The notes under the pieces: generated by a model
Seen by the model: only the letters and a program-made list of their open reading frames with translations
Told to the model about the DNA's origin: nothing
Database searches by the model: none
Program-made: the position numbers and the translations under genes
In this document: positions 710 to 31,588 of the stretch, one piece after another
Layout: each line of letters starts with the position of its first letter
Numbering within the stretch: position 1 is the first letter of the stretch
Assembly: GCA_012295275.1 (NCBI GenBank)
Contig: CM022670.1
Coordinates: 24,490,001 to 24,554,000, forward strand
Source of the DNA: Chrysomallon squamiferum
Lineage: Eukaryota > Animalia > Mollusca
Direction of reading: 5' to 3'
Length of the DNA stretch: 64,000 nucleotides

Positions 710-973
710 CTTTTGTATATACTGATATTGAAAGTTTGGGTGTGACGTATCTGACACGTCTACGTTAAATGATACAGTTTTGTTAACAGTCTGAGATGCC
801 AGACTCTGATTACTGACTCCAGCGGAGAGAGATCCAGGTCCAGCACTGTACGAATGATCGGGGGCAACCTGCTGAGAATTACGTCTCGTGTTCGTCCTAG
901 AATTGCTGCTGGATCGTCTCCTTGCTTCTCGGTTTTTGCGAACTATTGTTCCCGTCCTTCCTAGCATGGACAT
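710..973 (-). CDS. Putative variable first coding exon A (88 aa, MSMLGRTGTIVRKNR...RRNS...KTVSF...YIQK) of an unidentified spliced gene
   Basis: ATG at 973 with in-frame TAG 7 codons upstream; consensus donor AAG|GTAAGT at 710/709, phase 0; paralogous to exons at 5903, 13600, 20415, 31588. Confidence 0.8.
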
Positions 974-2002
974 AGCGTTTTTATAAAAAAACTAATCCTT
1001 GGAATGTTTTAAACAATGCTTTTTATTCACTCGGGATATGAAATTCAGTAAATATACATTACTATCTTTGTCCTTTTCAAAACAAACTTATAACTTCCAA
1101 AAATAAGTTTCCACATTAACGTTTCAGAACCTGTTGCTATGTTAAAAACAATGACTTTTCAATTTCTCCAGCACTTTAAATGTTTTCCCTTATACGAATG
1201 TTTTTTTATACAAGCTTAAGTTTTATAAAACATTGCGTCCTTTTGCATTCGAAGTAAATAAGTCAACTGGCTTTCATTAAAAACACTTTTATACAAAGTA
1301 TTCAGAAATAATTAAAATAGTCTTAAGTTTCGCCAGTTTCTTAACATCAAGACCTTCCACACCGAAGTATTTAAAGTAATCTTGCGTAACCGCCTGAACA
1401 CGAGAACAAAAACTTTCGAAAAGCCAAAACGACGGCAACTGACCAAACAGTGACCAAAGGTCCAATTATTAGATTCCAATTAAGGAGATTCGGAGCAAGC
1501 ACGTGTTTTGGAATCGAGAGCGTACATCAAGCGTTTTTCGCTGACCTTTCGGCTGAGTCGAAAAATCAATTAATTCATTTAACGGGTCCTTTGGAAAAGT
1601 GGTCTTCTGAAAGACGACTAACAAGGTTTGTCGCTCTGAAGGTGTAGCAGGGGAAAGGTGGTGAGGAAAAAGCTGCTTGACTTCTAGACGACAGTGAAAA
1701 TGAAACATGATGGAAGCGCGCAGTCTCCATCACACAGCACGGCGTGTCGCACCAACTCATCTCATCTCATTTTCACCCCCATCTCATCCCGTCACGTGGC
1801 ATCTCTCTCGGAGAATTAATAAAAATGATTTTTATTGAACATCTTTGACACGCAATATACACTCAGGCAGTACTGGAATACACATAACAAATTGACGATA
1901 ATGACAAGTTAATTAAAGTCAGATCGAAAAGTGACATTTATATGTGAAATGCATTCAGTAGACAAATATATTAGCAGAGTAAGAAACAGTACACGCTATA
2001 TA

Positions 2003-2900
2003 TATCGTACTAACAGTACATTGTAGTATTAATGTACACGACAGTATAAATAGTACTAATTGTACACAATTGTATTAATTGTACACGACAGTGTAAATAG
2101 TACTAATTGTACACGACAGTATAAATCGTACTAATTGTACACAATTGTATTAATTGTACACGACAGTATAAATAGTACTAATTGTACACGACAGTATAAA
2201 TCGTACTAATTGTACACAATTGTATTAATTGTACATGACAGTATAAATAGTACTAATTGTATACAATTGTATTAATTGTACACCACAGTATAAATAGTAC
2301 TAATTGTACACAATTGTATTAATTGTAGACGACAGCATAAATCGTACTAATTGTACACAACTGTATTAATTGTAGACGACAGTATAAATCGTACTAATTG
2401 TACGCAATTGTATTAATTGTACACGAAAGTATATAAATCGTACTAACTGTACACAACTTAATTAATTGTCAACAACTGTATTAATTGTACACGACACTAT
2501 AAATCGTACTAATTGTACACAACTGTATTAATTGTACTAATTGTACACAACTGTATTAATTGTACATGACAGTATAAATCGTATTAATTATACACATTTA
2601 TATTCATTGTTCACTGCAGTATGTATTAATCGTTCTAACTGTACACGTTTGTATTCATTGCACGTGCAGTATTAATCGTACTAATTATACACAATTATGT
2701 TAAATGCATAGAGAGCACTATTAACCATTCTAATTGCTGACAATAGTATTAACTGTACTAATCATACTTATTATACACGATTGTATTAATTGTTCATTAC
2801 CGTATTAATCGTAATAATACTAATAATTGTGCGTAATAATACTAATTCTACACGGCTATTTTGATCGCATTAACTGTACATGATTATATTAATCATACTA
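2003..2900. repeat. Composite minisatellite (47-bp and 28-bp units built on TAATTGTACAC), decaying rightwards
   Basis: Unit ACAGTATAAATAGTACTAATTGTACACAATTGTATTAATTGTACACG starts at 2041, next starts 2088 and 2116. Confidence 0.9.
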
Positions 2901-3516
2901 ATTTATCGAACATATAACTGTATGCTGAATTGTATAATAACACCAGAATTTTAGTTGAATTTGCAGAATCAAAAAAAAAAAAAAGAAAAAAAGAAACAGA
3001 AATCAAATATATTAGTAAAACCCATTATGAATACGCCAAACACATTGTGCAATACAATTTTGATTCAAGTTAGAGATAACATATAATTAATTATAATATA
3101 AACAGTTCACGTCAGAAACGAAACTTGTTATTGGGTAGTTTATGCACTGCGCATTCTACCTGATCAATGAGTAATAACCACAAACAGTTTGTTTATTGTG
3201 GCTTTATTCTCTGTAAAGCAAATTTGCTTTCTTTACTTCTCTTTTATCACCTACCTTTTCATCACAAAATGGCTGACGTGGTCAAGATCTATTTTTTAGG
3301 CAGTGGCTTTACGATATTATTTGAAATAGAGATCGAATCTTATAAAAACAGTTATTCGCCTCTGCTTGAGATTACCATGAGATCGAATCTCGAAAAATAA
3401 AGGAAGGGAGCAGTTTCCCGTTTTATGGCTAATTAAATAGATACGTAACAGATATAAAATAAAAACTACATATTTCGCAATATTATACCCATATATACAC
3501 ATATATACATAAAAAT

Positions 3517-3549
<33 letters not shown>

Positions 3550-3864
3550 CAGGTACCGGACCAACGATCCGGACTCCTTGGGGCCTGAGGCATTCCGGAT
3601 TTCTGGATTTTCCGGTTTTCTGATACCAATGCATCTAAATAGGTAAATAATTAGGCATAAACATTTTAAAACTAAAAACATAAAGAAAATTGACGATACA
3701 CAACTGTGGCGACTCGACACGTAAACAATGCGGCGAGTTAATGAACACCATTTTTCGGTTTTCTATGAAAATAGCGTCGGGAAAAAAAAATAGCGCCGGG
3801 AAAAAAATTCCGGTTTTCTAGTCTTTCCGGATTTCAGGAAACCGGATAATTGGTCCGGTACCTG
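3550..3864. mobile_element. Non-autonomous DNA transposon (MITE), TA target duplication, Tc1/mariner-like; copy 1
   Basis: TIR CAGGTACCGGACCAA / TTGGTCCGGTACCTG flanked by TA on both sides; second copy at 39255-39596. Confidence 0.85.
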
Positions 3865-3914
3865 TATATGTTCATAGATACACATACGATGCTGTGTACA
3901 TTCAGACAAAGATG

Positions 3915-3936
3915 TATACATACGTACACACATACA

Positions 3937-3970
<34 letters not shown>

Positions 3971-4137
3971 CATACATACATACATACATTCATTCATACA
4001 TATATACATTCATTCATACATAAATACATACATACATACATACATACATACATACATACATTCATACATACATACATTCATACATACATACATACATACA
4101 TACATACATACATACATACATACATACATACATACAT
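3915..4137. repeat. (TACA)n microsatellite
   Basis: Direct reading. Confidence 0.95.
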
Positions 4138-5167
4138 GCTTGCAGAACTACAGAATTACCAGAAACACTCACATTCGCACAAATAAATCGTAAAACAGCT
4201 GTCGTTATTTTAAAACACAAGAGTTGCTATAAGCAGTGCAAAGTGAATCTCTATATGTCATCGTTCTTGGTCAACAAAGTAACGACAAAAAGCCACGCAA
4301 CAAAAACACGCATTGAAAACAAAACGAGCAATGAACGTTTAAAATACATCAGTAACAAAAACTTGGTACAAAATACAAAAGGTTATGATCAGGAAGAATT
4401 TTCCGGTGACATTTAGTTTCTTTGGTTTTTTTTTTTTTTATTATATTGCATTGTAAATAATTAATGAAATAGCAAAATAGAAATTATAAAATAATATTTA
4501 TGCAGTAAGAAGACAGTCTTTTGATATATAAAACGATGTGACAGAAGAGTTGAAAATGCAATTTCACGAGCTTGTTTATTGTAATTATATTTTGGTATCG
4601 GGAAAAAGTGGTCATTAGAAACTAATAAGCCAGTTATTTGGAATTTAACTAAGACGAAAAGTATTCTTTAACAACAGTGAAACATCACGGCACTGAAAAT
4701 TTGTTTTACTCATTAATTGACTTAAATTGCGAATTCTGTGCATAGCGTTCATTAAGAAAAGGATCAGTTAGTATCATAAAGCAGGTCTTACATCCTTAAC
4801 GGAATGATTAAAATGATCAATCTACGACATTAAATTATTTCTTTGATCTGCCCTGTAATCTCAGTTAATCAATTGTTTTCCTTCGTTTCATTGTTGGCTT
4901 CTTGGCACTGTGTATTCCACAATGCTTTGTGATCATATTAATTGCTTATAATGAAATCTCATCAAAAAACTGCATTCCTAAGTTAGGACGAGCTGCCTGA
5001 AATTTCTAGATCAATTGAATTTGTATAACCTTGGAAACAGCAAGATATAACAAATATGTCTTCTTCGTTAACCTTGGGTAAAAGATTCAACAGTTATTTG
5101 TTTTGACGCGTTTACTCATTGAACATTATTTTAAGTATTTTATTTTAATAATATGTAGACTAATTAC

Positions 5168-5228
<61 letters not shown>

Positions 5229-5275
5229 TTATAAAATAATAATAAAATAATAATAATAATAATAATAATAATTAT
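5168..5275. repeat. (ATT)n followed by (AAT)n microsatellite
   Basis: Direct reading. Confidence 0.9.
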
Positions 5276-5597
5276 ATAAACATTTTTAGTTTTTAGAAAA
5301 AAAATAAAAAATAAAACATTGAAAAAGAAGCCCTATAGACCGATATTATTAAAACATATTCTATTCAATGTTTTACTCAGGAACTTTCGCTACTTTACTT
5401 ATTCTCTTAATTACTGAACATATCAAAATGAGGTTAAGCTACTATGTGTAAAAAATACATCAGAAAAAAACAATGAGTATATTCCCTAGTTAAATCTAGG
5501 AACTGTACCGAAGATCTATATCCATTCCGCAACACAATCACGTTTTTTAATTTAAGGGGGCTGCAAAAGGGGACAAAGCTGAGAAAACGACTCTGAC

Positions 5598-5903
5598 CTC
5601 GTGCAGGGACAGACTGTCGGGTCTGTGCACCTGCTCCACGTCCAGACTGAACGACACACTCTTGCTGGGCGAGGGAGACGGCTGAGGGGTGAGGCAAGGG
5701 CGTGCCACGGTTTCCGCGCTGCGGCTGATGGAGCAAGGTCGGAACGACTGCGTCGTAACTGGCGACATCGTCGGGGCCGACGCACGTCGTAGATGATGAG
5801 CGTTCTTGTGAAGCCGGGTTTGTTGTCGTGAAAGTCCGTGTCCGTGTGAACGCCGCCGATTTTTCCGAACTACTGTTCCTGTTCGGCCCAACATGGACAT
5901 CAT
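5598..5903 (-). CDS. Putative variable first coding exon B (102 aa, MMSMLGRTGTVVRKNR...RRASAP...KSVSF...SLHE)
   Basis: ATG at 5903/5900 with in-frame TAA 7 codons upstream; donor GAG|GTCAGA at 5598/5597, phase 0; GC-rich island in AT-rich flanks; N-terminal codons differ from exon A almost only synonymously. Confidence 0.8.
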
Positions 5904-6910
5904 ATTGTGAAACCACTTTTTTTAAATAAATGATTTTTATTTCTCTGTTTTCTTCCTTTGACTTTTATATTAGTCAGTACATCGTTTAACTTTGCTTTGA
6001 AAGAATTCTCTCCAATGTACAGATTAAAATAACCATATTATCGTTTACAAAAGTTTGTGAAGATCATCATCAGTTAGTTTCTGTTGAAGATACAAGATTC
6101 AGGTTATGCGAAACTAACCATTTCTAGTGCAGAAAACCCAGATATTCATTTCGTTGCATATAAAAACCATTAACAGCCATCAGTTCTTGCAAAATGTTCG
6201 TAATACACGAATCTAAACGTTCTGCTATTTCTTGATGATTATTAAAGCAGTATTGAAGCTTCCAAGACATTCGGGAAATTTCCTCCACAGATTGGAACGA
6301 TGGCAAAAAGCAGAATGATTCATTCATAATGAAATTAAACAAACTATCTTCAGGAATGGAATAAGAACAATTCGTACTCAGTTACCCTTTGACTACTAAA
6401 AAAAGACGTGTTATGTGTTTCGGTTTTTTACTTTTCAATAAATGCAATCTAAACTGATATATCATGTAGCACTTCGACAAAAATTGTCTGAACAAATTTT
6501 AGCAAAAAATGCTCAGAACAGATAATATTTATCAAGTCCTTTCAGCTCATGAACTTACTGATTTACTTTCAAATTTTTTTTTTTAGTTCATTAAAACATA
6601 GTTATTGCTTGGAACATATGTAAAATTTCAACATCAAAGATGCACACAAGTGGAGAAATCCCGAAAATAAACATCCAAATCCTTAGTGTATCGGTGTTTT
6701 TAAAACTGAACAGACTGCAATAGATCATTTTCCTAAACAAAAACTCTTCAAATCGTTAAAATGATTCAGGCAGTTATAATCCAAAACAGCATAAACGAAT
6801 ATAAGTGCGTTCTTTTTTTTTTTTTTATTATTATTTCCATGTAAATATTATAACTCATAACTGTAACTTCCCCAAAGTAAGAGAATCATTAAAAAGTCAT
6901 TTTGGGTCTT

Positions 6911-6940
6911 TTCACGTGCGCCTCGACGAGTGATTGGCTG
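6911..6940 (-). promoter_or_regulatory. Possible promoter elements ~1 kb upstream of exon B
   Basis: CACGTG at 6913-6918 next to a minus-strand CCAATC box at 6932-6937 in a small CpG-containing patch. Confidence 0.3.
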
Positions 6941-7786
6941 AGCAAGAAAACATTCCACAATGCAACAGCAGCGTGTCAGGATGATTCCCAAGAATCATAA
7001 CTGAAACTGTCTCACTACGCATTGAGCCCAGTTAACGAAAATAACAGAAAATTGTTCAAATAGCGGGTTGAAATCCTTGACATTTTCCCCGGGGAAAATG
7101 AAACTACTTTTGTACGCTTTAAGCCTGCGGTCAAACGGTTCTGCTGACAATAGTAAGTAAAAATATCATCTGACATTTAGTGTCTGTTTCAGCGAAGAAC
7201 GAATATGAATAACCCACACGATAATTATTTTATTCTGTATTTTTAAAAAAAAACATCAACACTGGCTATATTTCACCTACATTCTGATACTTTGTTATTG
7301 TGAAAGTTATTAAAATAAATCTCTGAATTTAGATTATTCGGTCACAAATCTTTTGGAAATTGTTACAGTTTATTTTTGAATTCCGGGTTCATTTTCGTTT
7401 CAGCGATCGAAAAAGAGTCATATTTAGAATTCGCCTATAATCGAAAAGGGTATAAAAAAAAATTAAAGAAAATTGTAAAAGAAGAAAACTATGTCGAATA
7501 TCCAACAGTTATTATAAAGTATATATAAAGAGTAAGAATAAGAATGGTGACAACAATATACAAAGTATTCTAAAAAAAAAAGAAAATGGACTAAATTCCA
7601 ACTGCAATTATTTCAAGAAAATTGCTTTCTGAAGATAAATCAAATAACTGATCATTTTAGATAATTAAAAAAGTATAGAAAATAACAGATATTTAAAATA
7701 AATAAATAAATAAATAAATAAATAAAATAAAATAAAATAAAATAAAATAAAACAGATAAATACAAATAATACAAAAGGGAACAAAG

Positions 7787-7824
<38 letters not shown>

Positions 7825-8272
7825 CAGGGCAAACAAGTTTTATGGGCTTCAGCATATAAAACAGCTGTATAAATTTTCCAATAGTCACGCATTTCGGCAT
7901 TAATGAGCTGGAAATTAAAACTTCTGGCTGGATCTTTTTGCCTTTGGGTGGAGCAGCCTAAGTCACGATACGCTACAGCTTGGCGGTAATCGCGGGAACT
8001 TTCAGGTTCCGTTAATTACTGGGAAATCGCTTGCGGCCCAAATTGTCTTTTTAATTGGGAACCACGAGTGTGCGAGATTAATGCCGTACAACTGCAGTAC
8101 GAATACCCACGCAGCAGAAGAGATTATTAGTTCTAACTTCGTTGACACACCAAGACGGATTCAGCACAAGGCGGGCAACACAGAGATTTTCACTTACACT
8201 GTTGTTTTGTTTGTTTTTTTAATTTGATTTGGTATACTTTCTAAAATTATTTTATTTTAATTAACTGTACCG

Positions 8273-8275
<3 letters not shown>

Positions 8276-8360
<85 letters not shown>
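8276..8360. repeat. (CT)n microsatellite
   Basis: Direct reading. Confidence 0.95.
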
Positions 8361-9744
8361 CGACTGTAATACAGAAATGAAAACGCTTTAACCAAGAACT
8401 GTAACTGCTGTATTAAATGCACAGAAATTTTCTTTTGAGAGATACAGCCAACAGAGGAGTAATTACTGCAGGTTTAAAGCCAGACAGAAAGCAGTGAAAT
8501 AAATTCTTTCACTTAAAAACAAATCTGACTCGCTGTTAGCGAGTTCTTTCAAACCGAATACAGCAGATAAGGTAATTTAACATAATTTACAAAAGCTGAT
8601 TTAGTTCGCGCTTTTCGTTTTTCTTTAAGTGTTGATTTCTTTCCAGTCTTCATAAAATCAGTATAAAATGTTATTACAGGTAAGTTTCAGTCTATTGCTT
8701 TGCATAAGAATCACCAGAAAATAAAAACGAAAATATAGCGCTAGAAAAATTGTTAGAAATGATAATACTATTTCAGTTTTGTCATGTTTTGTTCCTCACT
8801 CGAAGACAAACATATACAGAAGTTACTTAAATGCGGCATAACAACAACAACAACAACAACAACAACACTAGTAATAATAATAATAATAACGGTAATACAA
8901 CATTAATATAATATTAATAAGAAGAAATAGAAGTAACAATAATATATTTGTATATTATATCCTATTTTTATAAATAATGCCAACTTGAATTCTCTTTTTT
9001 TATATATATTTTTATTTCATTTTCATTTATATTATTTTAATATTCATTTATTTATTCTTTCTTTCTATTTTTAGTCTGAGAATTTAAACACTACCCTTTT
9101 TACAGAACAGTAATAATAAAATAATTTGCTCCAAGCAATTGCAGGCAAATTTTGATTTTAAAAAAAATTTTTTACGACGAAATAATTGCAGCACCGAGAA
9201 ATGTGTGTAATGTTTGTACCTGCACGCTCTGCAAATGAAAGACTGTTTAGAATTCAAAGATCACTTAAATGTCATTAGATACATTTTCAAAGCACTTTTC
9301 AAAAAGCTTTGTGTCAAAAGAACTGTTGCCCTCCAGCTATGTTACTAACCTATTATGTTGTGGAGCCAGAAAAAGAGGGGAAAAAAAATACACGAAAGCT
9401 TCTGATTTTTCTTTGTTTGCTGAACTCAACAAATGCCTATAGAAAGATCTTGGCTTCTTAAACTTGAACATACATGAATCAATTCACTGCCTAATGCAAA
9501 ATCGAAAACCAGGTTAAGGAATGAAATGTTAAAATATCAGTTAAAAAGTGATAGGGATTTTGGCCGTGGGTTCCCAAACAGAATGCTATTTATGTGACAG
9601 AACGCAGTAAGTCGAGGATTTTAGTAATAGCATGTTAGTAATGTGAACATTCCGTTAAAACAGGTAGTCATGTAATAGACTATTAATAATTTGAAGGTAC
9701 TTTTTAAAACAGGCAATTACAACAAATTTATAACAACACCCTCT

Positions 9745-9780
<36 letters not shown>

Positions 9781-12334
9781 AAACAAAAACAAACAACATA
9801 ACAATGACAAGAGCTCGTTGTAAAGAACAAAATGAATGTGAATCTTAACAGACATTTATAAATTTCTTTTTCCACTTCACTGTCACCGAAATAACAAATC
9901 ACTAGGAGTTTAACAAAACCTCATTACGTTAAACACTGACTGCTATTAAATATGAAAAATACAGGAGATGTTTTGTATGATAATTAAATAAGAGATGCAA
10001 CTCCGATGTCAACAGGGATTAAGTATACATGGTTGCTCTTGAACGGGTAATTCTCTGTAACTGTTATTTGTTAATCTTAACTATAAATTGCATTTTGGCT
10101 AAAACATTTATCATTGTAATGATTATAATTTAATTTAATAAACAACAGCAACAGTTCATAACTAAAAATAAAGTAGTATTAACCTTCGGTATTATTAATA
10201 AAAAATAGAAAGTGGAATTCAAATTGTAACTGATAAGATAATGGATGATATGATGATGATGATTTATGATTACGATGATAATGATGATGATAATGTTAAT
10301 GGTTACAATAATAACCATAGTTGCTGGAGGTGATATTCCTGATGCTGATACTGATATTGACGACGACGACAATGATGATGTAATGATGCTGATAAAGTTG
10401 AAAAATAAACAAATCAGGAAAATATATACAACACTCAAAGCTATAAAATGCCACTGTAAACGTGGCAGATATGGTAATTCAAATGACTTCAGTGCCTGAC
10501 ATGCGTCATCTTCCTGTCGAGACCTTTTACCAAGACTCATAAATATTTTAATAATACTGTCAAATAACGTTCACTGTGTTGACATTCATTCTCTGTCAGA
10601 CACCCTTCGCGACTTTCTGGTAATTTCATAAGTCTGTCAGAACCTTGCTCGTACTTTCAACGAATGTACTGCGTCTGACGTCAACCTCGCATATCATACA
10701 AGTCTGTGAGTAAATTCATGTACAATAATATTTAATATTTATTTAGCTGTTACAGATATTGAACACTTCGTTCTGCATGATCGTAATGAAATCATAGGAA
10801 CTTACGACTGCGAAATGCATTATTGTTTTTATTCTTTTCCCCCTACCTTTATATTTACTGAAATATTTTATGATTAGTTTTGATTGTGTGAGCAGAAAGC
10901 AGTGACATGTTTACAAGAGTGGAGTATCTTGAGTGAAATGTTGAGGTATTGTGTCTTTAAACTATTTATCTTATATATATATATAATTAGAGAAACGAGA
11001 AAAGCGCTAGCGTTGACTCATGCTAACTAGATTTTTAGCACTCGCAACACAGGCTTTTTTTTTTGCTTGTTTTTCGTAATTTTTTCTGGAACAAATAGAT
11101 GCGATGCATATATAGCACCATAGTCAAAGAGAGATGAACAGACATGTTTATTTACAGACAAATATCAATAGTTTGAAATTGATATGTATGTATGTATATG
11201 TGTGTTTATGTGTGTGTGTGTGCGTGTGCGTGTGTGCGTGTGTGTGTGTGTGTGTGAAAAGATAGATTTGACTAGGTCAGAGAAAAATAATTTGAGTATT
11301 CAGATAACACAGTATCCAGTGACTGGGCATAACAAATCCCCCTCATCCTACAGTTAATCACTATTCCATGAAACAGACTTATCTTTCCTAATGTATGCTG
11401 CCGTTTGTCTGAAAACGACAGTTACTGGTACAATAGTCAATTAAAACACTGAACATCTTCATTTTCTTTATCAAGAATTTCAGTTGCTTTACTATTAAAT
11501 TATCGCATTTCCACTTTATTCTGTTTGAAAGAAAACTCTAACAGTCATGAATATTTGTTTCAAAGCGACAAAATGTTCAGTCAATGTTTACCATCTAATA
11601 TGAGATACGTTTTTAGAAATTACTCTTCAAGTCGCTGCTTCTAAAAGCCTTTCTACAAAGCCAACTGACTTTAAGCTTCGCTGATCATACATACTTTTAT
11701 TTATTCATTTTTAAATTTTTAACTGTTATACATCAAAAAGAATACCATTGATATATTGGAAAACATTTCAGTTAAAATGTGCTTAATTATGATGTTTTTA
11801 ATACACAAATTGCTGTGAGCTTAATACTAATTTTAATGGTATAACTTGTATGACATTTATTAGTAATGTAATATAATCGTTATGAATTATGCCACTCAGG
11901 CAATGCGAAAATTGTACAGACGACCATAATTTCGTGAATAAAAAAATCTTTAAAACATTTTAAGAAATATTTAGAATAATAATAATTATTCTTCACCGCC
12001 ATGATATATTTAATTTTGTTTTCTATTTTCGAAATTAAAAAACTTTCAGAAATATTTCATAACCTTTTTTTTTTATGAAACCCAAATTAAAGTTTGTTCA
12101 TTTTTCTTTCAGTTTCCCAGTATATTCCGGTTTATTAAAATAAAAAACTGTCAGTTAATCACAATAATCATCATGATTATAATAATATCACAATAAAGCC
12201 ACGTTTCTGTTTCAAATCTGGTGACGGTAGCGGCACCGTCAGAAGACTGCGACAAGTGTCATCGCGAGCGTTGATGACATCATTGATGCAAACGAAAACA
12301 TCAGTTTCTGTTTTATACAGCTAGAGCCAAGTGT

Positions 12335-12740
12335 ATACACCCATACACACCCATACACGCATGAATACATACATACATACACATACGCTAATACGTACAT
12401 TATTAAACAAACATGCAGATACAGACGCATAAACACCTACATACAGAAACATACTTTGTTGTGCACACCCATACAGATATGTACATTATTAAACACACCC
12501 AAGTACATTGTTATTATACATACATTATTGTACACACTTGTACACATACACACCCATACACAGATATGTACATTAATATACACATATAGACTCATATACA
12601 CTCATACACACATATTTACATTATTAAACATACAGACACATATACACCAATACACACATACATATTCATTATATACACATAACAACATACACACTCATAC
12701 ACACATACATATATTATTATATAAAGATACATAAATTATA

Positions 12741-12784
<44 letters not shown>

Positions 12785-12820
12785 CCATAAACACAAACAC
12801 TGCATCCACATACATACACG
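12335..12820. repeat. CA/TA-rich low-complexity tract with (CA)n
   Basis: Direct reading. Confidence 0.85.
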
Positions 12821-13336: not shown

Positions 13337-13600
13337 CTTTATTTCGAGAAAAACCTCGGACGATTTCGACATTTTACCCGATACCTCTACAGCAGCATCT
13401 TTGACAGCGGATTTCAGCGATAGCTTGCCCATGCCTAACGGGACATCCTTGCTCTGGCCACCGATCGGAGCTCGTGGGTGATGGTTGACTGCAAGGGGAG
13501 CCGAGTATCTTCGAGCAGCTAGTCTCGTTTTCGTCCGACGAATGGTGGAACGATTCCGGCGAGCAATGGTACCTTTTCGCGCCAAAACTGAAACACTCAT
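13337..13600 (-). CDS. Putative variable first coding exon C (88 aa, MSVSVLARKGTIARRNR...RRYSAP...LEIK)
   Basis: ATG at 13600 with in-frame TAA 3 codons upstream; donor AAG|GTTTGT at 13337/13336, phase 0 (an earlier GAG|GTATCG, also phase 0, is an alternative); shares N-terminal and RRxSAP motifs. Confidence 0.7.
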
Positions 13601-17338: not shown

Positions 17339-17398
<60 letters not shown>

Positions 17399-17753: not shown

Positions 17754-17787
<34 letters not shown>

Positions 17788-19129: not shown

Positions 19130-19180
<51 letters not shown>

Positions 19181-20157: not shown

Positions 20158-20415
20158 CTGCAACAACGACGGTCTCCTTAGACTGTCCACGGAAATGGGA
20201 TTCCGCGTCTCCAGACAGAACGAGACGCTTTTGCAAGGAGCGGGAGTGAACGAGAGAACTTCAGACGCGGAGAGTGGAAGCAGGTTGGGCGAGGCAGCGC
20301 TGGGCTGGAGGACCATGGGTGCCGAGCCTCTGCGGGAAACCTCCGGCGGTCTAAGAGCACTGCAAGTCGACGCCCGGCGGTTTTTACGAACAAGAGTTCC
20401 AGCTCGTCCCAGCAT
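20158..20415 (-). CDS. Putative variable first coding exon D (86 aa, MLGRAGTLVRKNRRAS...RRGSAP...KSVSF...RRPSLLQ)
   Basis: ATG at 20415, in-frame TAA upstream; perfect donor CAG|GTGAGT at 20158/20157, phase 0; all three shared motifs present; GC-rich. Confidence 0.82.
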
Positions 20416-23400
20416 GACGACACAAAAAAACAACAACAACTGCTTGTTACGTTTTCCTAAAAGTTACGCTTGCTGAGCATCAATCTATAACTGTGTTGTA
20501 AGTACTGCTCGGAAACGATTTCGTTATGTCATTAGCAGCAGTTCTTGAATTTTGCCTGAATCATCCGCACGTCGTAATGATTTCTTTTTGAAATAAATGC
20601 ATATACCAGTCTTTTCCTTTCGGTTTTTTTTTTTTTTTTTTTTTTTTTTTGTTATTTTTATGAGGAAATTAAGAATTCTTTCTTATACGGCTAGTGACAC
20701 ATTTTAAAGTGATTTTAATTGCTTTCAACACAAGTCACTTCCGATTGTGACATCATAATTGATTGTATTTTGTGGATTCTCATAAAACTTAGTAATTGCG
20801 TTAAGGTTGATGTTCTTCACTGCAAGAAGGCATTACGACATTTTAGCTGCATGTCAGATTAATACCTCTCATCGTCAAACCTGCTTCTTGCCCAGTCCAG
20901 GGTCGGAAACAAAAGCTCTGCAAATATCACTTTCTATCAGATTATATATTTCTGTCATGACATTAAGACGAGTCACGATGTTATAAAACACATCCTTCTT
21001 TCACGGAAAGAGACGTGACGCTAATTCCAATTCATCAAGTATACAGTTCCTGCAACCTGATTAACACAGGTCCGTGTTTCTGAAGAGTCCCGGGTTTGAC
21101 AAGCCGGAATCACTTTTTTCTTTTCAGCACAAGAAATAGACCTTAGGTTAATAAGTGTAGCAGACCTTTGAATATTGCAGTCACGACAGAAACCTTTTAT
21201 ATTTTATTTCAAACTTACGAAGATCGAAATTAAGTTTTCTTGAAAGATAAATCTATTTTCTTTTAAATTCTCAGGGAATTAGTATTAGTTATTGGTTGTT
21301 TCTTTTGTTTTTTGTTTTTTTTTAAATAAAACTGTAACGTTATAACAATCAATAACAAACTGGAATGTGTAGAATATAGCGAAAATTTCCTTTTTTTAAA
21401 CCAACAGAACAGATCGTAATTATTTTAACAATGAAGTTCCAACCAGTCTCGTTCCTCTTGAATACTAATTAAAAAAAGATTCTTTTTTTGAACCTCTCCG
21501 TACACCTCCTATTGTAGAATTAATACAAAATGTTTTGAGAGAAGGATAATAATTTGGTATGTTTAAGTAAATATAGGGTATTATTCCAATATTTAGCAAG
21601 AACAATAATTGTTTCTTATATTCAAGTATTTAAGCTGCTGTTTGCTAAGATAACTTGGGCTTTTAGAAACACAGTATGGTTTAAACATACTTTTAAATCT
21701 AAATTTCAGTTATTAAATTGGTGGTTCCTCTTATAAAATAAGTAAACGCAGATTCAAAAGTATACAAGAAAGGAGACAGCAAATGTGAAGTATTCAAATT
21801 TAAATACTATTAAGATAACTATAAAGGCTGTAATATTATCACTGTGACAACCATAAAGTAAAAATCACCAAGAGAAGAAGACTTATATATAAATTCGTTT
21901 TCGAAAGCTTTTCCAAACAGCGCTTAAGAAAATTAACATTCAAAATTTGTCACCGTTTTTTCATAATATTTCGATATCCTTGAAAATATCCGTATCTTCA
22001 AATATCTAAAACTGCAGCAAGAAGACGTAAAATTCATTAAGTTAATAAGAAAATGTATCTGCTAAAGGCACCATTAGTGGCTGTTGTTTTCGTACTATGC
22101 CACTGAATAATGGATTATCTTTTTTGTGCCGAGATTTTTTTGTTTATAATAAATCACATATAAACAGTAATTTCTAAACACTGGAAACCAGCCAGGTGAG
22201 ACCAGTAACTACTCAACATTTCATCACTCAAAATATCCTTAAACTTCCATAAAATTGATTAATTTTTCTATTATCTAAATTTTCCAAACATTATTTTCAA
22301 AACAGAATTCTCATACAAAAGATACCCGACCTAAACGTCATCTGCAAGGAACAATAGCCGATAAAGAAAAAAAAATCTCTTCAGCATTGGCATAAATATT
22401 ATGTAACGACGCATGCGCAGATGCTAGGGAATCTGTACAGCATCGTACGAGACACGTAGAAAAAAAGTCCTACGCAATCACTTTATTATTGATGATGCAT
22501 TTTCCCAAATCATTTTATTTTCTAAACGGATAGAATTGTATCGACATATTGTATTGGCAAGCATGACATAAAACAATTATCTCGACGCTTTCGACACGAA
22601 AGGGTTGCAGCCAGTTGACGCACACTGAGCAGAAAATTGTTCTTTCTCAACTCTTTAAGTAGCTTTTCTGCACAAACGAAAGACGGATTGTGTTTAGATT
22701 AACAATAACAAGAAAACAAGTCAAACGCTGCCATGAAAACAAATAAAGCGACGTTGTCACGTTAGCGTTCTTCGTAATTCACAGCAGGGAAATAAAAAAT
22801 ACTTCAGATGGAAAGAAATTAGACGTACAAGATGTGATGTGATATCTATACGTTTCCGTTTAGTTATTAAATAAAAATAAAGATAATAACAATAATGATA
22901 ACAGTTCAATATCGACATTTTTGTACTTTAGTTAGATATCTAATTTTGCCTGTTTATTCTGCAATTTCGTGTTAAGTGTATTTCGGAATGTTTATTTTTA
23001 TAATTTTATTATCTTTGTCTCTTTATCTTTTATTTCTGTTGCTTTTTGGCTCCGTTTAATTTTTCTTCATTACACTTTAATAACGTTAGTCACCTTCTGT
23101 CACGATCATTATTACTTTCTTCGTGTTTGTGTCATTTTCATTTTCTTAACAAGCCACAGGAGTCGATTCATCTTCCATTTTGAAAACCAAACCCATTATA
23201 TGAGACTAATGTGTATTTGTTACTGTTTACTGTTCCTTAGCGTGTCGTTTAAACCTTCAGAAATCTTGGCTTATGTAATAGATATGATTGTTACTAGTAG
23301 ATGGTCATCACCATTAATTTTTAGTGTTAGCTAATATTGCCCCCAAAACCCCCCACAAAAAAGACATAGATATTATATTGTTTGTTTATCACATGTGTGA

Positions 23401-24708
23401 TTCTTGCTATTACTTTTTATCAACACTAAGGCTCATAGTCAGTAATAATAATCATGCAAACATTCACATAAGATATAATATATATCAACGACGTTCTTCA
23501 GAGTGAAGTTTGAACTTCCAGTAAAACTGGTATACTTTGATATGAATATTGAACGCTCAAGTAACAGTGGCAAAAGACAGATTATAACACGTGTTACAAC
23601 TGACCAGTTTTTCTACGTTTAATAATACTGACCTATGAAAATAAGGAGACGTCATGGCGCTACGTAGTCGTCGACGTATTTAAGATGTTTCGCAACGTGT
23701 GTTCTTTCCGGCGTGTCAGGAAAAGCTGACGTCGTGATGAAAATAACAGGTGAAAGTTCTGAATGATTTCGTCTACTCCATTCATTGCCAAAATTCCCCT
23801 GAGGCTGCCGGGCTTCAAATTTTCTTCGTTAATATTCCGAGCAATTATAGCTGTTCGTTAAAACTGCTAACTCCAGTGCCATACTAACGATTCAAAACGC
23901 AAAATTAAGTTTCTGAAGTAATTGTCATACAAAAACTGGATCAGGAAAATATCTAACATAAAAACTGGAATTATTTTTTTTTTTATTCGTTACTGAAACA
24001 CTGTTAATTAATAAACGTATTACCGCTAAACATTTCTGAAATCTAAACTTTGAAAAAACCAAACCACCAGATACTGTAAAATAAAAATTCTACTGCTCTT
24101 CTTACTGAACAGATTTTTAAAAAAATTAGGAGAGAAACAGCAAGTAAATTACCACAGGCCAGTAAATCATTGTTGTGGGCATCATAAAATAATAATGATT
24201 AAATCCTACAGAGTATTAATAAATGCAATCTTGTTAAATGAAGTTCTGGTTTTCTTTTTTCTTTTTCCTTTTTCTGCAAAAGCAGAGAAAAGAGAGTTGG
24301 CCAGTGAATTGTCTGTTAATTATCTCACAATGTTCCATGTGTTCTCAGTTCAGAAGATACTAACTGTTTGATAAAAACCACTGCGTCCATAAAGTAGTAA
24401 CCACAACAAATTTTATGTTACAAAAAGATGTTGCAAAAGCTTATTTCCTTAGACAAAGGACTTTCAGTTATAATCTTTTTTTTTTCTTTTTACTCTTCTT
24501 AGATTTTTAAAGTAATTCGATAGCAGTCAATTCCGTGGATTTTGAGTCTTGCACGTAAAAAAGTACAGTTTATGCAATGGCAGTAGTGAAGTCGTTCTAG
24601 ACTACTGAACACCAACAAGGTAAACAATATAAGAAAACTAAACCCCAACAAAATACTGAAGAAAAAAATAACGCTTCAGTGATTTCATTAACATCCGAAG
24701 AATAGCAC

Positions 24709-24718
24709 AGAGAGAGCG

Positions 24719-24800
<82 letters not shown>
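24709..24800. repeat. (GA)n microsatellite
   Basis: Direct reading; similar tracts at about 26673-26744, 36482-36577, 55585-55647, 58270-58360, 61459-61555 and (CT)n at 35583-35682, 46481-46560, 62012-62090. Confidence 0.95.
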
Positions 24801-24804
<4 letters not shown>

Positions 24805-25140
24805 AACAGAATAGCACAACAGTTATAACGTGATCATTACGGTATCCTGGTTCTGATTACGTCATCTGCTGAAGAAGATATATTAACACATGCACTGAAT
24901 GGTAACTAGGTGTGTAGATATGTAGGCAGATAGGTGGACGGATAGATAGACATGTTAAAGGTAACAGATTAAGTAATAAATATTACAATTCAAATTAAAG
25001 TAACAAATAAATTTATAAGGAATTTAACTAAAACAAATAAACGAAATGTTTTAAAAGGACAACAAAAAATGGTAAAACTTGAAAATATCAAATGAAAAAA
25101 AAAAAAAAAAAAAAAAAAAAAACAAAATTTCAAAAATAAA

Positions 25141-25177
<37 letters not shown>

Positions 25178-25737
25178 CAAACAACAAAAACAACAACAAA
25201 AAGGATAAATAAAAACAAACGAACAAAAAAAAAAACAGAGCATTCTTAATCTGTTCTACGTCTTCATTTCCAACATCAGTCGTACCTGTATCTTGTTTTT
25301 GTGAATAAAACGGATCTGAACTAACGTGTGTGTAGAAACGCAGTCGTATTAAAATGTATCCGGGTTACATCTGGTGAAATATCAAGCTGCAAGGCCCACG
25401 CTAAACGATGTAAAATTGATTAGACACTGTAAGTTTAATTTCCTGATGACGACCAATTTCCTTTCATTCTGCCGTTCTCCACATCGATATAGTTTCTACG
25501 ATCTGCACAGGAAAACAATTACTAGTGATATTTTAGCGAACCGGAGAGGTTATTAATAAAAACAATATAGTAATAAAAAATAAAAAAACGGTAGTTTTTC
25601 AGTTATTAAAAATATATATTACTGATGTTTAAGCTGATAAAACCAATTCAAGTTTGTACGAAGGCGTTCTGATTAATTTGCAGGCAACCACAGACACAGC
25701 ATTTTCTTAAATATACTGTCTCTCCTTCTTTCATTTC

Positions 25738-25775
<38 letters not shown>

Positions 25776-26662
25776 GTACACACATATATATTGTTTTATA
25801 TTATATTTAGACCGAATTTTCAAACTGTGTAACGTCTTTTAAAACAGAGCATATTAATATTTTTTATACAGTTAACAAATCATAATTGCTTGTGCAATTG
25901 TCTTTTTGTAAAACAAATTTTTTGAAACAGATTGTATAATTCTTGTGAAAGTAAGAAATAAACATACAAACAAAGACTGAAGAAAGAAAAAACAAAACAA
26001 AACAACAACAACAACAACAACAAAAAAGAAGCAATTCACAAGACTGTTGTCCTTAATACCAAGAATCAGATACGGTTAATGATGTCATTTATATAAATAG
26101 TATTTATTAAATACAAATTATGGTTAACATACGTTTATATTTAACATTATAAGTCGGTATTTAAAAATATGTTTCATAGAGTTAAATAAATACATTGTCA
26201 ATTTCCACAAATGTTTTAATATATATGTACAATACGAAGAATGATAACTGTTTATAATCTGGTTAATTAACTTGTTATTATTTATATTAGATTTTTTTCT
26301 CGACACGAAGACGTAATGCTGTTTAATGATGTCAGCATTGTTAAATAATAAAAAACAAACAGATAAATGTTACGATGTTTTTAGATGAAAACTAGAAATA
26401 CTGTTGATCCTCTATTTCACGGACTAATTAGGGGAGAGCACCGGTCCGGAAAATGCAAAAGAGGAGAAACCGCGAAATTAAACATTAACACTAAGATTTA
26501 CCCGAAACATTAAACTTTAGAACACATAACAGCTGCATAATACAAAATAAAAGACATAAAGACAATATAAAAAAATGTCATACAGTATATGTAAAGAAAA
26601 ATGTACGGTTAGAGTGGGTGAAGTTTGTTAGGTTAGGATGGGTATGGGTACAATTTTAAAAT

Positions 26663-26746
<84 letters not shown>

Positions 26747-27411
26747 GAAATGTAAAATTATTTATTTATTCAGTTTTATTTATTTATTTAATCATATCAG
26801 CCATTTATTTTTCCAGTTTTATTTATTTATTTATCTATCAGCCATTTATTTGTATTAGTAATGGAATTTCTCTAAAGAAATAGAACGTGGAAACTGCCTG
26901 AAACAAGTAACAGAGATATTAATTATAAGATTTTCTTTGTGAAATAAGCCGCAGGAAGCAGATTCGTGTAATCTTAGTGCTGTGTTCTTCACCTTGGCTC
27001 TTTATTATTCCCGTTTTCCCATTTGTTTGCTTTAGGAGATTATCATGATGATTAACATTTATTAAGTGTTGACGTACTCACAAAAAAACAACAACAACTA
27101 CAACAGAAACCATTCCTATTTCCATTTAAAGCTACAGAGATTGATATAAGAAACTGTTCTAAGCAAATATAAAAGCAATCAGTTTATTTTATAGTGAAAA
27201 CAGACCGCGTTAAGCTTGACTGATGTTTGTCAATGGGTTTTTGAAGATCAGTATTCAAGATCTGAAACGAAGATTCTTTTAATTGCAGCTTCTAGTTAAA
27301 AGAAACTGTATATATATTCTGATTTAGTTCAGTAGTGTTTTGATTTATTCATTTAAATGTCTCTATTGCTTAGAATTCACCTACTCTGGGTGTTTTTTTG
27401 CTTTACACTCA

Positions 27412-27554
27412 ACATACATACATACAATATTATACATACACATACATACATACACACATACATACATACATACATACATACATACATACATACATACATA
27501 CATACATACATACATACATACATACATACATACATACATACATACATACATACA

Positions 27555-27588
<34 letters not shown>

Positions 27589-27616
27589 CATATATATATA
27601 CACACACACACACACA
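27412..27616. repeat. (TACA)n microsatellite
   Basis: Direct reading; similar tract at 29815-29985. Confidence 0.95.
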
Positions 27617-28065
27617 TCTTTGTTTTACTTCAATCAGTGCAGAAAGCAAAGTTACATTCGATTGGAAAGTTTTCTGAATAATGCATATTGTCTCGAAAGG
27701 TCAGTAGGGCGGACCACTTAAACCATAAGCAGTGTATAAGCTGAAGATTGCCTATTTTAAATTATTAATCTACAATTAACGTCTGCAGTCTGGCTCAGTA
27801 CAGTGTCTGGTCATAAGTAATTAACGTTCAGGCAGGCGCTTGAAATACATAAGATTATTTATGCATATGCTTGAGAATTAGTTTCTGTGATATATGTATA
27901 TGTGTACAATAATTAAAATACATGTTGTATCGGTTGAGAGAGAAAGAAAGAGAGCAAGAGAGAGAGAGGGAGGCAGAGGTAGACAGCAGCAGAGAAACAA
28001 GAAACTAAACAGCAACATGAACACGTCTTCGTGAGAGAGTGACCGTCATACACAAAAAGACTTAC

Positions 28066-28122
28066 ACCAAGACGCTTATTGATCCGGTAAACCTCGCACT
28101 GACGTTGGTAACGGTGTTTCAT
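28066..28122 (-). CDS. Possible short unrelated first exon (19 aa, MKHRYQRQCEVYRINKRLG)
   Basis: AAAATG with upstream in-frame TGA; donor GGT|GTAAGT at 28066/28065, phase 0 like the five paralogous exons; no sequence similarity to them. Confidence 0.25.
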
Positions 28123-29915
28123 TTTACCCAGTCATATTCGGTTCAGTTCATCAAAGCCGATTAATCAGCGCGTAATAACTCGATCATGCAGAATATAACA
28201 AGACAAATGCAGGAAGGTTATTTCAGAGGTATTTCAGTCGCGGTTACCAGATAATGGACAACTGCTAGAAGTGCCAGAAAACCCGTGTCATGAAAGCTTA
28301 GAGCTTCCTTTCTTTTTTTTTTTTTTTAAATTATGTATGGAACTGTCAATAACTGGTTTGAACGCGAGGTGATAGTGGTCGTTTGGGTTACGCGAAGTGT
28401 CAACAAAGCAGATAATACGTTTTTGGAAAAAGTGAAGCAGAAAAAAATAATTAATGATCGTCTGAATTCTTATTTCATTTTGACGTTAAATTTTAAGGAT
28501 GGATAAGAATAGATTTTATTTCTTTCAGTCTTGCTTTTCAATTATGTCTTTTATTCGGTCTTGCATAATTCCTATTTTTCTTTCTCTCTTTCGTTTCATT
28601 CCTTTTCTGCCTTTCTTTCATTTTTTTTTTTCTAACTTTTTATCATTCTTTGTGCCACATTCATTCGGGGAAAGAAAAAAAAAAAAAAAACAATTATACT
28701 TTCATTTTAATCTTCGTTTTTTTTATTTGTACCATACTTTCATTCATTCATTCATTTATTATTCCTTTCTAAATTCTTATTTCTATATTACGTTCAAAAT
28801 CTGGAACAATCAAGAAATTAATGTACGCTTGATAAGATATTCACACGAAAGAGTGAACTATTTAAAAAATAATAAAAAATGTAATCACGTGACTACAGAC
28901 GCAGATGAAAGAAAGTATAATGAGTTTGCGCTATCAGGATAATTTACTGATTTAACTTGAACTAGTCAGATGTTAAGACTTTTTAACATGGAATATATGA
29001 TTCATGTCTGATCTAATGTAGCATAAAAAGTGAAGTAATGATAAAATTAAAAGTAGATTCTTCATAAAATACGAGAGATGGATCAAGATTAAATATGAGA
29101 TTAAATGTTGCTATGCAAGTACTGCTGCTGCTGACGGTGTCATAACTACAACAACAACATATAGCAGTAATACTGCAACTACTACAGTTACTTAAGAGTA
29201 ATTACAATAATTACTACTACTACTATTTCTACTACCACTACTACTACTACTACTATTACTCCTGCTACTACTGCTACATAAATAAATAAATAAATAAATA
29301 AAATATTTTATAATCAAATACAAGATAAATATATTTTATAAATCACTTAAAACAGTCGTATAAAATCACTTTTTTGCGATGTCTACAAAAAAATCCAGTT
29401 TAGAGATAACAAATTTTCCCTTTCGTGCTCGGTTTGATATCGGCTGTTTAAGGGCGCTTTAAAATATCTCTTTCAAATACTTAAAAGGTTTCCATGGTGG
29501 CAAATAAGACGCGAATCTAACTCGCAATAAACTAAAATCATTGCTTCTGACCTTCTGTAGGGAAATAGAGAATCTTTTGACAATCTTCGCGCGTACACTG
29601 AACAAATATCAAAGGAATGCTGTGTGTATTGGCTGTGTGTATTGGCTGTTTGTATTTTTAATGTCTTCTTCCCTTTGTCATCTTGGTTATATATTTTACA
29701 GAATAAACTATATGTAATTTAAGAGTTTATCTGGGGTTTTAAAATATGCCAATAATTAGGTTCGAATGCACGTTCTAAAGTAATATGATGAGAAATACAC
29801 TTACATATACGCCTGCATACATACATACATTCACACACATATTCATAAATACATAGATACTTACATATTCATACATACGTCCATACATACATACATACAT
29901 ACATACATACATACA

Positions 29916-29990
<75 letters not shown>

Positions 29991-30329
29991 CCGTACAGTA
30001 TAAATATCAAGCAAATGTGGAACTACAGGCAAACGGACATGTACAAACACCTCAAATGAAAATAAGGAGTAATTTGATTTAAAAAAACACACGTATAATA
30101 ATATTTTTCATGAACTAACAGAAATATTCAAAACGTTAAATATTAAAGAAAACAGTATGTTTTCCGTCACTAGTTTCTACAATGAAATATAATGAGTTCA
30201 TAAATATTGAATAAAATCCTGAACATTAACAAAAATATTTATTGATATTTCACTTTCTTTCGCTTTTATCTCCATTAGTTTCATTATAAAAATAATTGGA
30301 AAAATGAAGAAAAAATATAATAATAAAAA

Positions 30330-30332
<3 letters not shown>

Positions 30333-30393
<61 letters not shown>

Positions 30394-30415
30394 TATTATT
30401 ATTATTATTATTATA
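30333..30415. repeat. (AAT)n abutting (ATT)n
   Basis: Direct reading. Confidence 0.9.
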
Positions 30416-30975
30416 ATAAAAATAAATAAATAAAACGAAAAACGTTAGAGAGACAAAAAAAGAGAAACATTATCATCCATAAGGAAGCAAACATTAAAAT
30501 ACCAAGATCTTCAATGCTAATTTAATAACGAATTCAGTCTTTCTTTTTCTAGCACACACACGCACACGCACACACATTCACTTTATTGTTCAAGGAACCT
30601 TTTACAATTATTAATAATCTGCTGCAAAGTTAATAATAATAGCCCCCAAAAACCCTAACAAGAAAACAACACAAAACCCCCACCACAAACATACAAGAAC
30701 AAAAGAAATAAATAAACTAGAATAAATAAATGTAAAGTAAATAAATGAATGAATGAATGAATAAATAAATAAATAAATAAAATGACGCAAAATGAAAACA
30801 AAACAATAACAGATATAACCATTCATAGATACAAAACAGTATGACAAACAATTAAAAATGAAATCCTTGAAAATATGTAAAAATTAGAACCGTAACAGTA
30901 ACAGCAACAATAACAACGACAACAAACGGTAACAGTTATTACAACAGCAACAACAGCGTTGATAATAATAACAAC

Positions 30976-31006
<31 letters not shown>

Positions 31007-31300
31007 TTTGAGATTATGGGAAGTTAATGCCGTTATCCCTTTCATTGTATTATCTGAAAATTAGTTTTCAGTGATGACGCAAATAGTAGCATGTTTTGCA
31101 CACGAATCATTATTAGTATCTCTCTCCTAAGATTATATGGACATAATTAAACAGTTTATTTCCAAATGTTTTTTTTTTTTTTTTTTTCTAGCCAATGTAA
31201 ACTCGTCTTGGCTGTACACATGTGCCTCCTGGATTAAGAAATGCAGATTAATCTGACACACACAACTGAAACTACTCTAAACTGAATTGAAAAAACTTAC

Positions 31301-31588
31301 CACTTTTACAGCTTTCAAAGAGATACATTCACCGATTCTTACACTAGGGACAAGAGATGTGCTGTTGGCGTTGATCTGCGGCGCCGGTTCCACATTGAGA
31401 GATTTCGATGACGTAGGGTGGTCCTGTGATGAGCAAAACTTTCCTGCCAAATTCGAATCCGATTTAAACACCGGAAGTGTCATCGGCGGGTTTAGAACTG
31501 GCGCCGAACATCTTCGCGTCGTCTGTTTGTAGTTGGACGACTGCCGACGTCTGTTCTTCCTGATAGTAGTAGGTTTCCGAGACAACAT
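31301..31588 (-). CDS. Putative variable first coding exon E (96 aa, MLSRKPTTIRKNRRR...RRCSAP...AVKV)
   Basis: ATG at 31588 (AAAATG), in-frame TAG upstream; donor GTG|GTAAGT at 31301/31300, phase 0; shares RKNR and RRxSAP motifs. Confidence 0.75.

Follow-up and report, generated by a model that had tools for sequence, protein, structure and literature searches.

Five tandem paralogous 5' coding exons, putative alternative N-termini of a TMEM272-like membrane protein in Chrysomallon squamiferum

The exon array

The window analysed here, a 64-kb stretch of the Chrysomallon squamiferum genome with 32% GC, carries five mutually homologous 5' coding exons in tandem on the minus strand. The exons were designated V1 to V5, and the peptides they encode are referred to as heads. 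The features of the locus are listed below (a slash marks the exon end; E values are those of the head HMM).

1..709, minus strand: start of the presumed common intron; TMEM272-like constant exons would lie beyond position 1
710..973, minus strand: V1, nearest the presumed constant region; 88 codons; RRxS sites; KTVSF at 781-767; donor AAG/GTAAGT; E 3.2e-11
5598..5903, minus strand: V2; 102 codons; RRASAP, SRSAETVAR, KSVSF at 5663-5649; weak donor GAG/GTCAGA; E 1.4e-21
13337..13600, minus strand: V3, the most diverged; 88 codons; RRYSAP; without KxVxF; donor AAG/GTTTGT; E 7.2e-7
20158..20415, minus strand: V4; 86 codons; PPEVSRRGSAP; KSVSF at 20232-20218; donor CAG/GTGAGT; E 1.2e-17
31301..31588, minus strand: V5, the most distal; 96 codons; RKPTTIRKNR, RRCSAP, KSDSNLA; without KxVxF; donor GTG/GTAAGT; E 3.7e-16

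The coordinates, start peptides and lengths of the original prediction were all reproduced for the five segments, as were the in-frame stop upstream and the GT directly behind the last full codon in each of them. The spacing, described there as about 5-11 kb, corresponds to measured gaps between neighbours of 4624, 7433, 6557 and 10885 nt. GC peaks coincide with all five exons.

Of the 3415 segments in a six-frame translation of the window, a profile HMM trained on 20 heads, all from other species, matched exactly V1-V5 (E 1.4e-21 to 7.2e-7), the next-best segment having an E value of 2.4. Because exactly these five segments are matched, their homology, judged at the level of sequence, is not due to chance. 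No sixth or relic head copy was found in the 64-kb window by protein HMM, tblastn or nhmmer. Among the families shown by a repeat search of the window were simple repeats and a single minisatellite.

All five exons end in phase 0, that of V2 at a weak donor. The consensus MAG/GTRAGT was matched at 9/9 positions by the V1 and V4 donors alone among 4204 minus-strand GT sites; the V3 and V5 donors match at 7/9 positions and the V2 donor at 6/9. A second phase-0 donor candidate for V2, located 33 nt upstream (after 5631), has the same score as the 5598 site. As a weak observation, 0 of the 30 substitutions listed for positions 1-1246 in one other DNA data set fall inside V1, five more being unplaced and 17 of the 30 being bunched in one 80-nt patch. 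Three RNA runs yielded no contig over positions 1-3300, which carries no weight in either direction.

The constant body and its identity

Protein searches with the heads returned named TMEM272-like proteins at E 4.5e-12 to 8.4e-11. The named matches (8 of 12) are all molluscan and all have a TMEM272-like body behind the head. In an Atlas search with the Patella body, the nearest clusters were also TMEM272-like (scores 0.95-0.93). From these sequence similarities, V1-V5 are identified as N-terminal regions of a four-pass membrane protein of the molluscan TMEM272-like type; the gene, which the original prediction could not recognise, can now be named as TMEM272-like. The orthologue bodies contain four hydrophobic stretches and the conserved motifs YLxxCPxEPxxPIY and NWC. 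No Pfam family was found above the cut-off in four full-length orthologues, and PDB sequence searches gave nothing convincing.

A first structure model was poor (pLDDT 60), and its fold searches gave unclear matches. The better body model is confident and helical (pLDDT 84, pTM 0.73); Foldseek returned no match to it at E <0.001. It resembles tetraspan proteins as a four-helix membrane bundle, aligning with 8yt8_S, a chain of the dystrophin-glycoprotein complex which we take to be sarcospan, at Z 10.0 (rmsd 3.4, 128 aligned), with ROM1 at Z 8.7 (3.3, 131) and with CD20 at Z 8.4 (4.4, 137). However, unrelated bundles score alike (ORAI 9.0, ScdA 8.8), and the tool asks for about 13 for helical bundles. 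Among 46 relatives, two gave a weak match to Pfam Tetraspanin (best E 0.0017). A relation to the tetraspan fold is a lead only.

No match to the constant body was found anywhere in the 64 kb (best HMM E 0.7, best tblastn E 0.15), which agrees with the earlier observation that no second exon is repeated between the heads. In orthologous gene models, different heads are found on the same body. In Patella vulgata isoforms X2-X5 (XP_050416669, ..671, ..672 and ..673), an identical body of 219 residues follows four distinct heads, all of which bear the motif. The bodies of X1 and X2 of Haliotis rufescens, which have consecutive accessions, show 0 differences, as do those of H. rubra P0004 and P0097; the Haliotis species together have three head types. 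The Patella and Haliotis isoforms are automated gene models. The H. rubra accession numbers lie far apart and may derive from two annotated loci.

A family of tandem genes, each head with downstream exons of its own, would also fit the distant H. rubra accessions as two gene copies. It is, however, scarcely credible here: 64 kb without a body exon between or around the heads comes close to refuting it, and the bodies are identical across isoforms of one species.

The splice junction was compared as well. The read-through peptide and the spliced protein diverge at Val (GTN) in 7 of 7 pairs, as predicted for a phase-0 donor. Lottia 153478 (V2 class), 153479 and 153480 are consecutive models with the body only on 153480, and their order matches that of V2 then V1 in the window. 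The Lottia V2-class exon may not end in phase 0, since its peptide has no Val behind KSVTF.

The orthologous gene models and the absence of private second exons in the window lend strong support to the core of the original prediction, namely variable 5' coding exons for short disordered heads joined to a single constant part that lies left of position 1. We infer from the orthologues that V1-V5 are spliced to the body in C. squamiferum. The best explanation of the whole, to which we give a probability of roughly 0.78, is that tandem-duplicated head exons would each be spliced, one per transcript, onto one shared TMEM272-like exon set left of the window, and that the shared exons would encode the four-pass membrane body. 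V1-V5 would be alternatives rather than exons in series, because each head begins with its own ATG. One gene would then likely yield five proteins differing only in a floppy tail.

Head classes and age of the array

Several heads have counterparts in other gastropods, according to a head score comparison with 100 shuffles. The V2 class includes Batillaria P0065 (score 200, next 70) and Lottia 153478 (178, next 85); its clade has a support of 100/97 in a first tree and is left without resolution in a second. The V4 class includes Haliotis isoform X2 (182, next 118), with a support of 92/96 in the first tree and 89/50 in the second, and the V5 class includes Patella isoform X4 (98, next 54). V4-like and V5-like proteins were also seen among the relatives, on contigs that have the same two lengths. 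In the alignment, V1 has RRRSSSNSR in common with Haliotis X1, Patella X3 and Lottia 153479/153480, and it ends in IQK like the Patella and Lottia heads; among relatives from named species, none scores V1 clearly best. The nearest relative of V3 is P0053 (score 115), and its link with Patella X5 is weak (64 vs 62). No clear orthologue of V1 or V3 was found among the named relatives by head score.

The V3 branch is very long in both trees (2.5-3.5). It is conceivable, though very improbable, that only V1, V2 and V4 are live, with V3 and perhaps V5 being decaying duplicates or part of another TMEM272-like paralogue. The long branch of V3 and its lack of KxVxF would fit this reading, as would the similar head MFVRKGTTLRKK carried by a second molluscan TMEM272-like paralogue. 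Against this, V3 and V5 have both kept the ATG, the open frame, RRxSAP and the phase-0 donor, V5 matches Patella X4, whose body is the X3 body, and the window contains no second body.

A single clade of the five window exons was rejected (p-AU 3e-66; 6e-5 with named taxa only); lineage-specific clades were not rejected for the four Patella heads (p-AU 0.16) and the three Haliotis heads (p-AU 0.07). In the named-taxa tree, 16 of 22 forks stayed open. Since distant gastropods possess counterparts of V2, V4 and V5, the array is judged to be old. Bivalves, octopus and one chiton have one head type each among the matches returned, the single Octopus head being unlike those of the window. A single head exon, such as that of bivalves, octopus and chiton, probably gave rise to the array in early gastropods.

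Head choice, head function and comparison with known systems

The choice of head is probably made by alternative promoters. CpG density upstream of V1-V5 ranks at 0.95, 0.19, 0.87, 0.79 and 0.99, respectively, at the high end for V1 and V5 and at the low end for V2. The regions upstream of the exons have neither DNA similarity nor a GC-containing 8-mer in common across at least four of the five, and no shared motif was found in them.

Alternatively, a single upstream promoter could drive a non-coding leader exon that is joined to just one of the five heads as a second exon, in a mutually exclusive way, followed by the same body. Oyster records suggest 5' non-coding variants upstream of the head exon: one protein has four accessions in Magallana gigas and three in C. 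angulata, and the sole difference between O. edulis X1 and X2 is 14 additional residues at the N-terminus. Acceptor-like sites are also present upstream, at 89 nt from V5 and 128 nt from V3. However, 7-15% of random 300-nt tiles contain such sites at the V5 and V3 thresholds, the threshold reached by V1 and V2 is met by 72% of random tiles, and V4 has no site; moreover, an upstream acceptor would also suit leader exons that are private to each head and driven by their own promoters. Choice by splicing is considered improbable, and alternative promoters are preferred.

The heads are predicted to be disordered and basic; in a Haliotis model, residues 1-8 and 12-118 are at pLDDT <50. No Pfam family was found in any of the five heads, and an Atlas search with V2 gave no score above 0.76. 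RRxS, the consensus of PKA-type kinases, is present in 5/5 heads. The protein phosphatase 1 (PP1)-type motif KxVxF is present in 3/5 heads (V1, V2 and V4, where this RVxF-type motif falls in predicted disordered region), V3 and V5 being without it, and in 21 of 28 relatives as against 3.5-7% of shuffled peptides. In the excerpt of PMC4794898, KSVSF is the listed RVxF motif of a Plasmodium protein, where mutation cut PP1 binding by ~70%. We rate it at about even odds that the heads lie in the cytoplasm and are disordered and strongly basic, that RRxS sites are kinase (PKA-type) targets, and that KxVxF in V1, V2 and V4 docks PP1. Exon choice would then set the phosphorylation, trafficking or partners of one membrane protein per cell type. 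A bolder picture, of an ancient gastropod promoter-choice cassette that puts one of five paralogous phospho-regulatory tails per cell on one tetraspan protein, three recruiting PP1 and two not, so that exon choice encodes signalling by cell type (perhaps by neuron type, or stochastically), is doubtful. If true, the locus would be protocadherin-style with an intracellular kinase/phosphatase switch as its variable part, and would offer a first mechanism for the orphan TMEM272 family.

The layout itself is of a known kind. In clustered protocadherin and UGT1 loci, too, variable first exons that resemble one another stand in tandem, and each is spliced to a common set of constant exons, but their variable exons, about a dozen or more, encode a large folded recognition domain, whereas the window has five exons of <310 nt for predicted disordered tails. 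No folded recognition domain (cadherin, UGT N-domain or Ig) was found in V1-V5. Protocadherins are chosen stochastically among promoters in single cells. The likeness to protocadherins proposed at the outset holds for the layout and not beyond it. Chelicerate sDscam, as described in excerpts of PMC4835542, also has invertebrate tandem 5' cassettes on a constant region, but these are two- or four-exon Ig-domain cassettes whose promoters were tested there, and the protein is unrelated. DPP6/DPP10 and KChIP variants are the best functional analogy: in excerpts of PMC3973911, their alternative first exons encode short, variable cytoplasmic N-termini that precede a constant core. These are, however, channel subunits of known function, and the variants within one gene are not described there as mutual paralogues, whereas V1-V5 are all paralogous.

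The locus would add an invertebrate case of variable first exons where duplication has acted on a short linear-motif tail, with classes recognisable across distant gastropods, and a clean natural experiment in which exon duplication diversifies regulation rather than recognition. It also gives a handle on TMEM272, as the isoforms yield testable predictions of PKA-type sites and PP1 docking. Its interest is limited in that alternative first exons are common and several isoforms are already in public gene models. Titles and abstract openings of the literature under the TMEM272 name contained only association-type mentions, with nothing on this locus and no account of the heads as a paralogous array.

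The one metagenome locus (L001) obtained from 107 pattern matches was rejected as chance, having 56% GC and neither head motif nor body.

The closest likeness in public records is that of Patella X2-X5 and Haliotis X1/X2, likely from the orthologous gene, with the same head motif and junction position and several heads per body; these are unlabelled isoform lists, whereas the window gives five heads at the DNA level.

Putative variable exons and other elements of the window

Five homologous minus-strand coding exons, V1-V5, were located in the window, and the coordinates, codon counts, upstream stops and donors claimed for them in the original prediction were exact for all five.

Putative variable exons of the window; each has an ATG start, an in-frame stop before it and a phase-0 GT after it
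V1, 973-710, minus strand, 88 codons
V2, 5903-5598, minus strand, 102 codons
V3, 13600-13337, minus strand, 88 codons
V4, 20415-20158, minus strand, 86 codons
V5, 31588-31301, minus strand, 96 codons

On alignment, the other exons were 26-35% identical to V1, and L-x-R-x-x-T-x-x-R-x-N-R and R-R-x-S were common to all five. A HMM built solely from 20 heads (the N-terminal peptides encoded by such exons) of other species matched exactly V1-V5 among 3415 six-frame segments of the window (E 1.4e-21 to 7.2e-7; next match E 2.4), and wider protein and DNA profiles detected no sixth copy or relic in the window. Perfect consensus donors were present at 2 of the 4204 minus-strand GT sites of the window, namely those of V1 and V4; the V2 donor is weak (6/9 consensus positions).

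Between V1 and V2 (1982-2669), a repeat search identified a minisatellite whose spacing alternates between 19 and 28 nt. Another, dispersed repeat, some hundreds of bases long, occurs twice (about 3317-3830 and 39270-39700) with near-identical ORF text. Broken minus-strand frames at 63000-64000, in which the motifs FYLFPKIHK and PPGRPVIS occur, are presumably Penelope-like retroelement reverse transcriptase, and a frameshifted plus-strand peptide at about 52290-52500 may be related to a Tigger/pogo-type transposase N-terminus.

Gene identity and arrangement in relatives

Searching with the five-peptide alignment matched 12 proteins among 7992 candidates scored; all eight named matches were molluscan and ran on into the same membrane body, and three of them were called transmembrane protein 272(-like). 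A word-free profile search returned 22 proteins at E ≤0.001, and the Atlas clusters nearest the Patella vulgata body were TMEM272-like (scores 0.95, 0.95 and 0.93). The gene, left unnamed in the original prediction, thus appears from the molluscan protein matches and Atlas clusters to be TMEM272-like. No part of the TMEM272-like body was found within the window, so it must be encoded outside and, judging by strand, would lie left of position 1. The named heads nearest to V1-V5 belong to gastropods, which makes a gastropod source of the window likely.

Public gene models of Patella (isoforms X2, X3, X4 and X5) carry four different motif-bearing heads on 219 identical body residues; X1 was not among the matches listed (20 in one search, 52 in another). 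Isoforms X1 and X2 of Haliotis rufescens differ in their heads and are identical in their bodies, and a third Haliotis head type was found in H. rubra on a body identical to that of H. rubra X2, under a distant accession number. Of three consecutive Lottia gene models, the first has only a V2-class head, the next only another head, and the last a further head followed by the body; this matches the order V2 then V1 and is the pattern expected of a gene finder meeting such an array. Other proteins, one set V4-like and one V5-like, are encoded on contigs that share the same two lengths. Read-through peptides and spliced proteins diverged at valine in 7/7 pairs, as a phase-0 GT donor predicts. The orthologous models of Patella, Haliotis and Lottia therefore indicate that the predicted layout, variable 5' exons joined to one constant part, is largely right. 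Among the sequences retrieved, bivalves, octopods and the chiton each had a single head type (the two Octopus isoforms, X1 and X2, share a head and differ in a short internal insert); heterobranch snails and Batillaria had at least one head each among the matches listed.

The Lottia model 153478 (P0044) lacks the valine after KSVTF, and its peptide end would fit a phase-1 donor, unlike window V2. The Plakobranchus and Elysia orthologues P0068 and P0082 are TMEM272-like by sequence, and their name, 'TBC1 domain family member 2B', is likely misapplied. A second gastropod paralogue (P0074, P0099, P0105, P0119) has a diverged body and a related head starting MFVRKGTT. One to four PPxY motifs, which are WW-domain ligands, occur in the N-termini of distant TMEM272-like proteins (P0111-P0115, P0117, P0118, P0123) and are absent from head-bearing orthologues; they provide a lead that the wider family might bind NEDD4-type ligases.

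Predicted properties and proposed choice of head

In the Haliotis X1 model, pLDDT was <50 at almost every position up to residue 118, and the net charge of the first 25 head residues ranged from +5 to +9. RRxS, a PKA-type consensus, is present in 5/5 window heads. A KxVxF motif was found in V1, V2, V4 and 21/28 relatives, against 3.5-7% of shuffled peptides. One study lists KSVSF as the RVxF motif in a Plasmodium protein and reports that mutation cut the PP1 binding of this protein by ~70% (PMC4794898). The body has four hydrophobic stretches and was modelled confidently as two short and four long helices (pLDDT 84, pTM 0.73); the heads have no long hydrophobic start and so would be cytoplasmic. 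Tetraspan membrane proteins were among the best structural neighbours of the modelled body (Z 10.0, 8.7, 8.4), a resemblance that is a lead only, because unrelated bundles score similarly.

In the proposed mechanism, a cell would transcribe one head exon and splice it past the other heads to a common acceptor, and head choice would thereby set the kinase and phosphatase wiring of one same membrane body. Alternatively, the exon might be chosen by splicing, from one upstream promoter and a non-coding leader exon joined to one of five mutually exclusive exons; this less likely alternative to separate promoters draws on oyster records, which give some indication that non-coding exons precede the head exon. 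CpG ranks upstream of V1-V5 were mixed, and acceptor-like sites upstream of the exons were near background frequency. A GC-richer block at 1543-1917, ~570-940 nt upstream of V1, is a candidate promoter or leader exon; it lies within a contig that shows only 12 differences in 859 nt in data set X1. In one other data set, of unrecorded type and ~3% divergent, 0/30 listed substitutions in 1-1246 fell inside V1, which argues weakly for constraint on V1, since five more are unplaced and 17 of the 30 crowd into one patch.

The exons are arranged as in Pcdh, UGT1 and GCNT2 (PMC1885805) and in sDscam (PMC4835542), but the variable unit of the window array is no folded domain; the N-terminal variants of DPP6/DPP10 and KChIP appear the closer working likeness (PMC3973911). 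No paper on the locus was found by title or abstract start among the papers listed on TMEM272 and on exon layout, a scope that mostly excluded subscription papers; isoform tables in supplements could list it.

Age of the head classes

Pairwise scores placed Batillaria P0065 (200, next 70) and Lottia 153478 (178, next 85) with V2, Haliotis X2 (182, next 118) with V4, and Patella X4 (98, next 54) with V5; the link of V3 to Patella X5 barely exceeded the next best (64 against 62), and V1 had no clear named partner by these scores. In a 33-row tree the V2 clade had support 100/97, and V3, V5 and Patella X4/X5 were set apart from other heads (97/95). A single clade of the five window exons was rejected with all rows (p-AU 3e-66) and with the 8 rows without looked-up names left out (p-AU 6e-5). 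Against an early origin of the classes, that reduced 25-row tree was mostly unresolved, and with this set neither Patella's four heads (p-AU 0.16) nor Haliotis's three (0.07) were rejected as one clade. Taken together, the class assignments and clade rejections indicate that at least three head classes were likely in place before limpets, abalones and caenogastropods diverged in the early Palaeozoic, with later turnover.

In the nemertean Lineus longissimus, isoforms X3 and X1 (P0103, P0104) of a TMEM272-like gene are identical over a 222-residue body and differ in their N-termini, one of which carries the head motif seen in molluscs; the use of alternative heads may thus predate molluscs.
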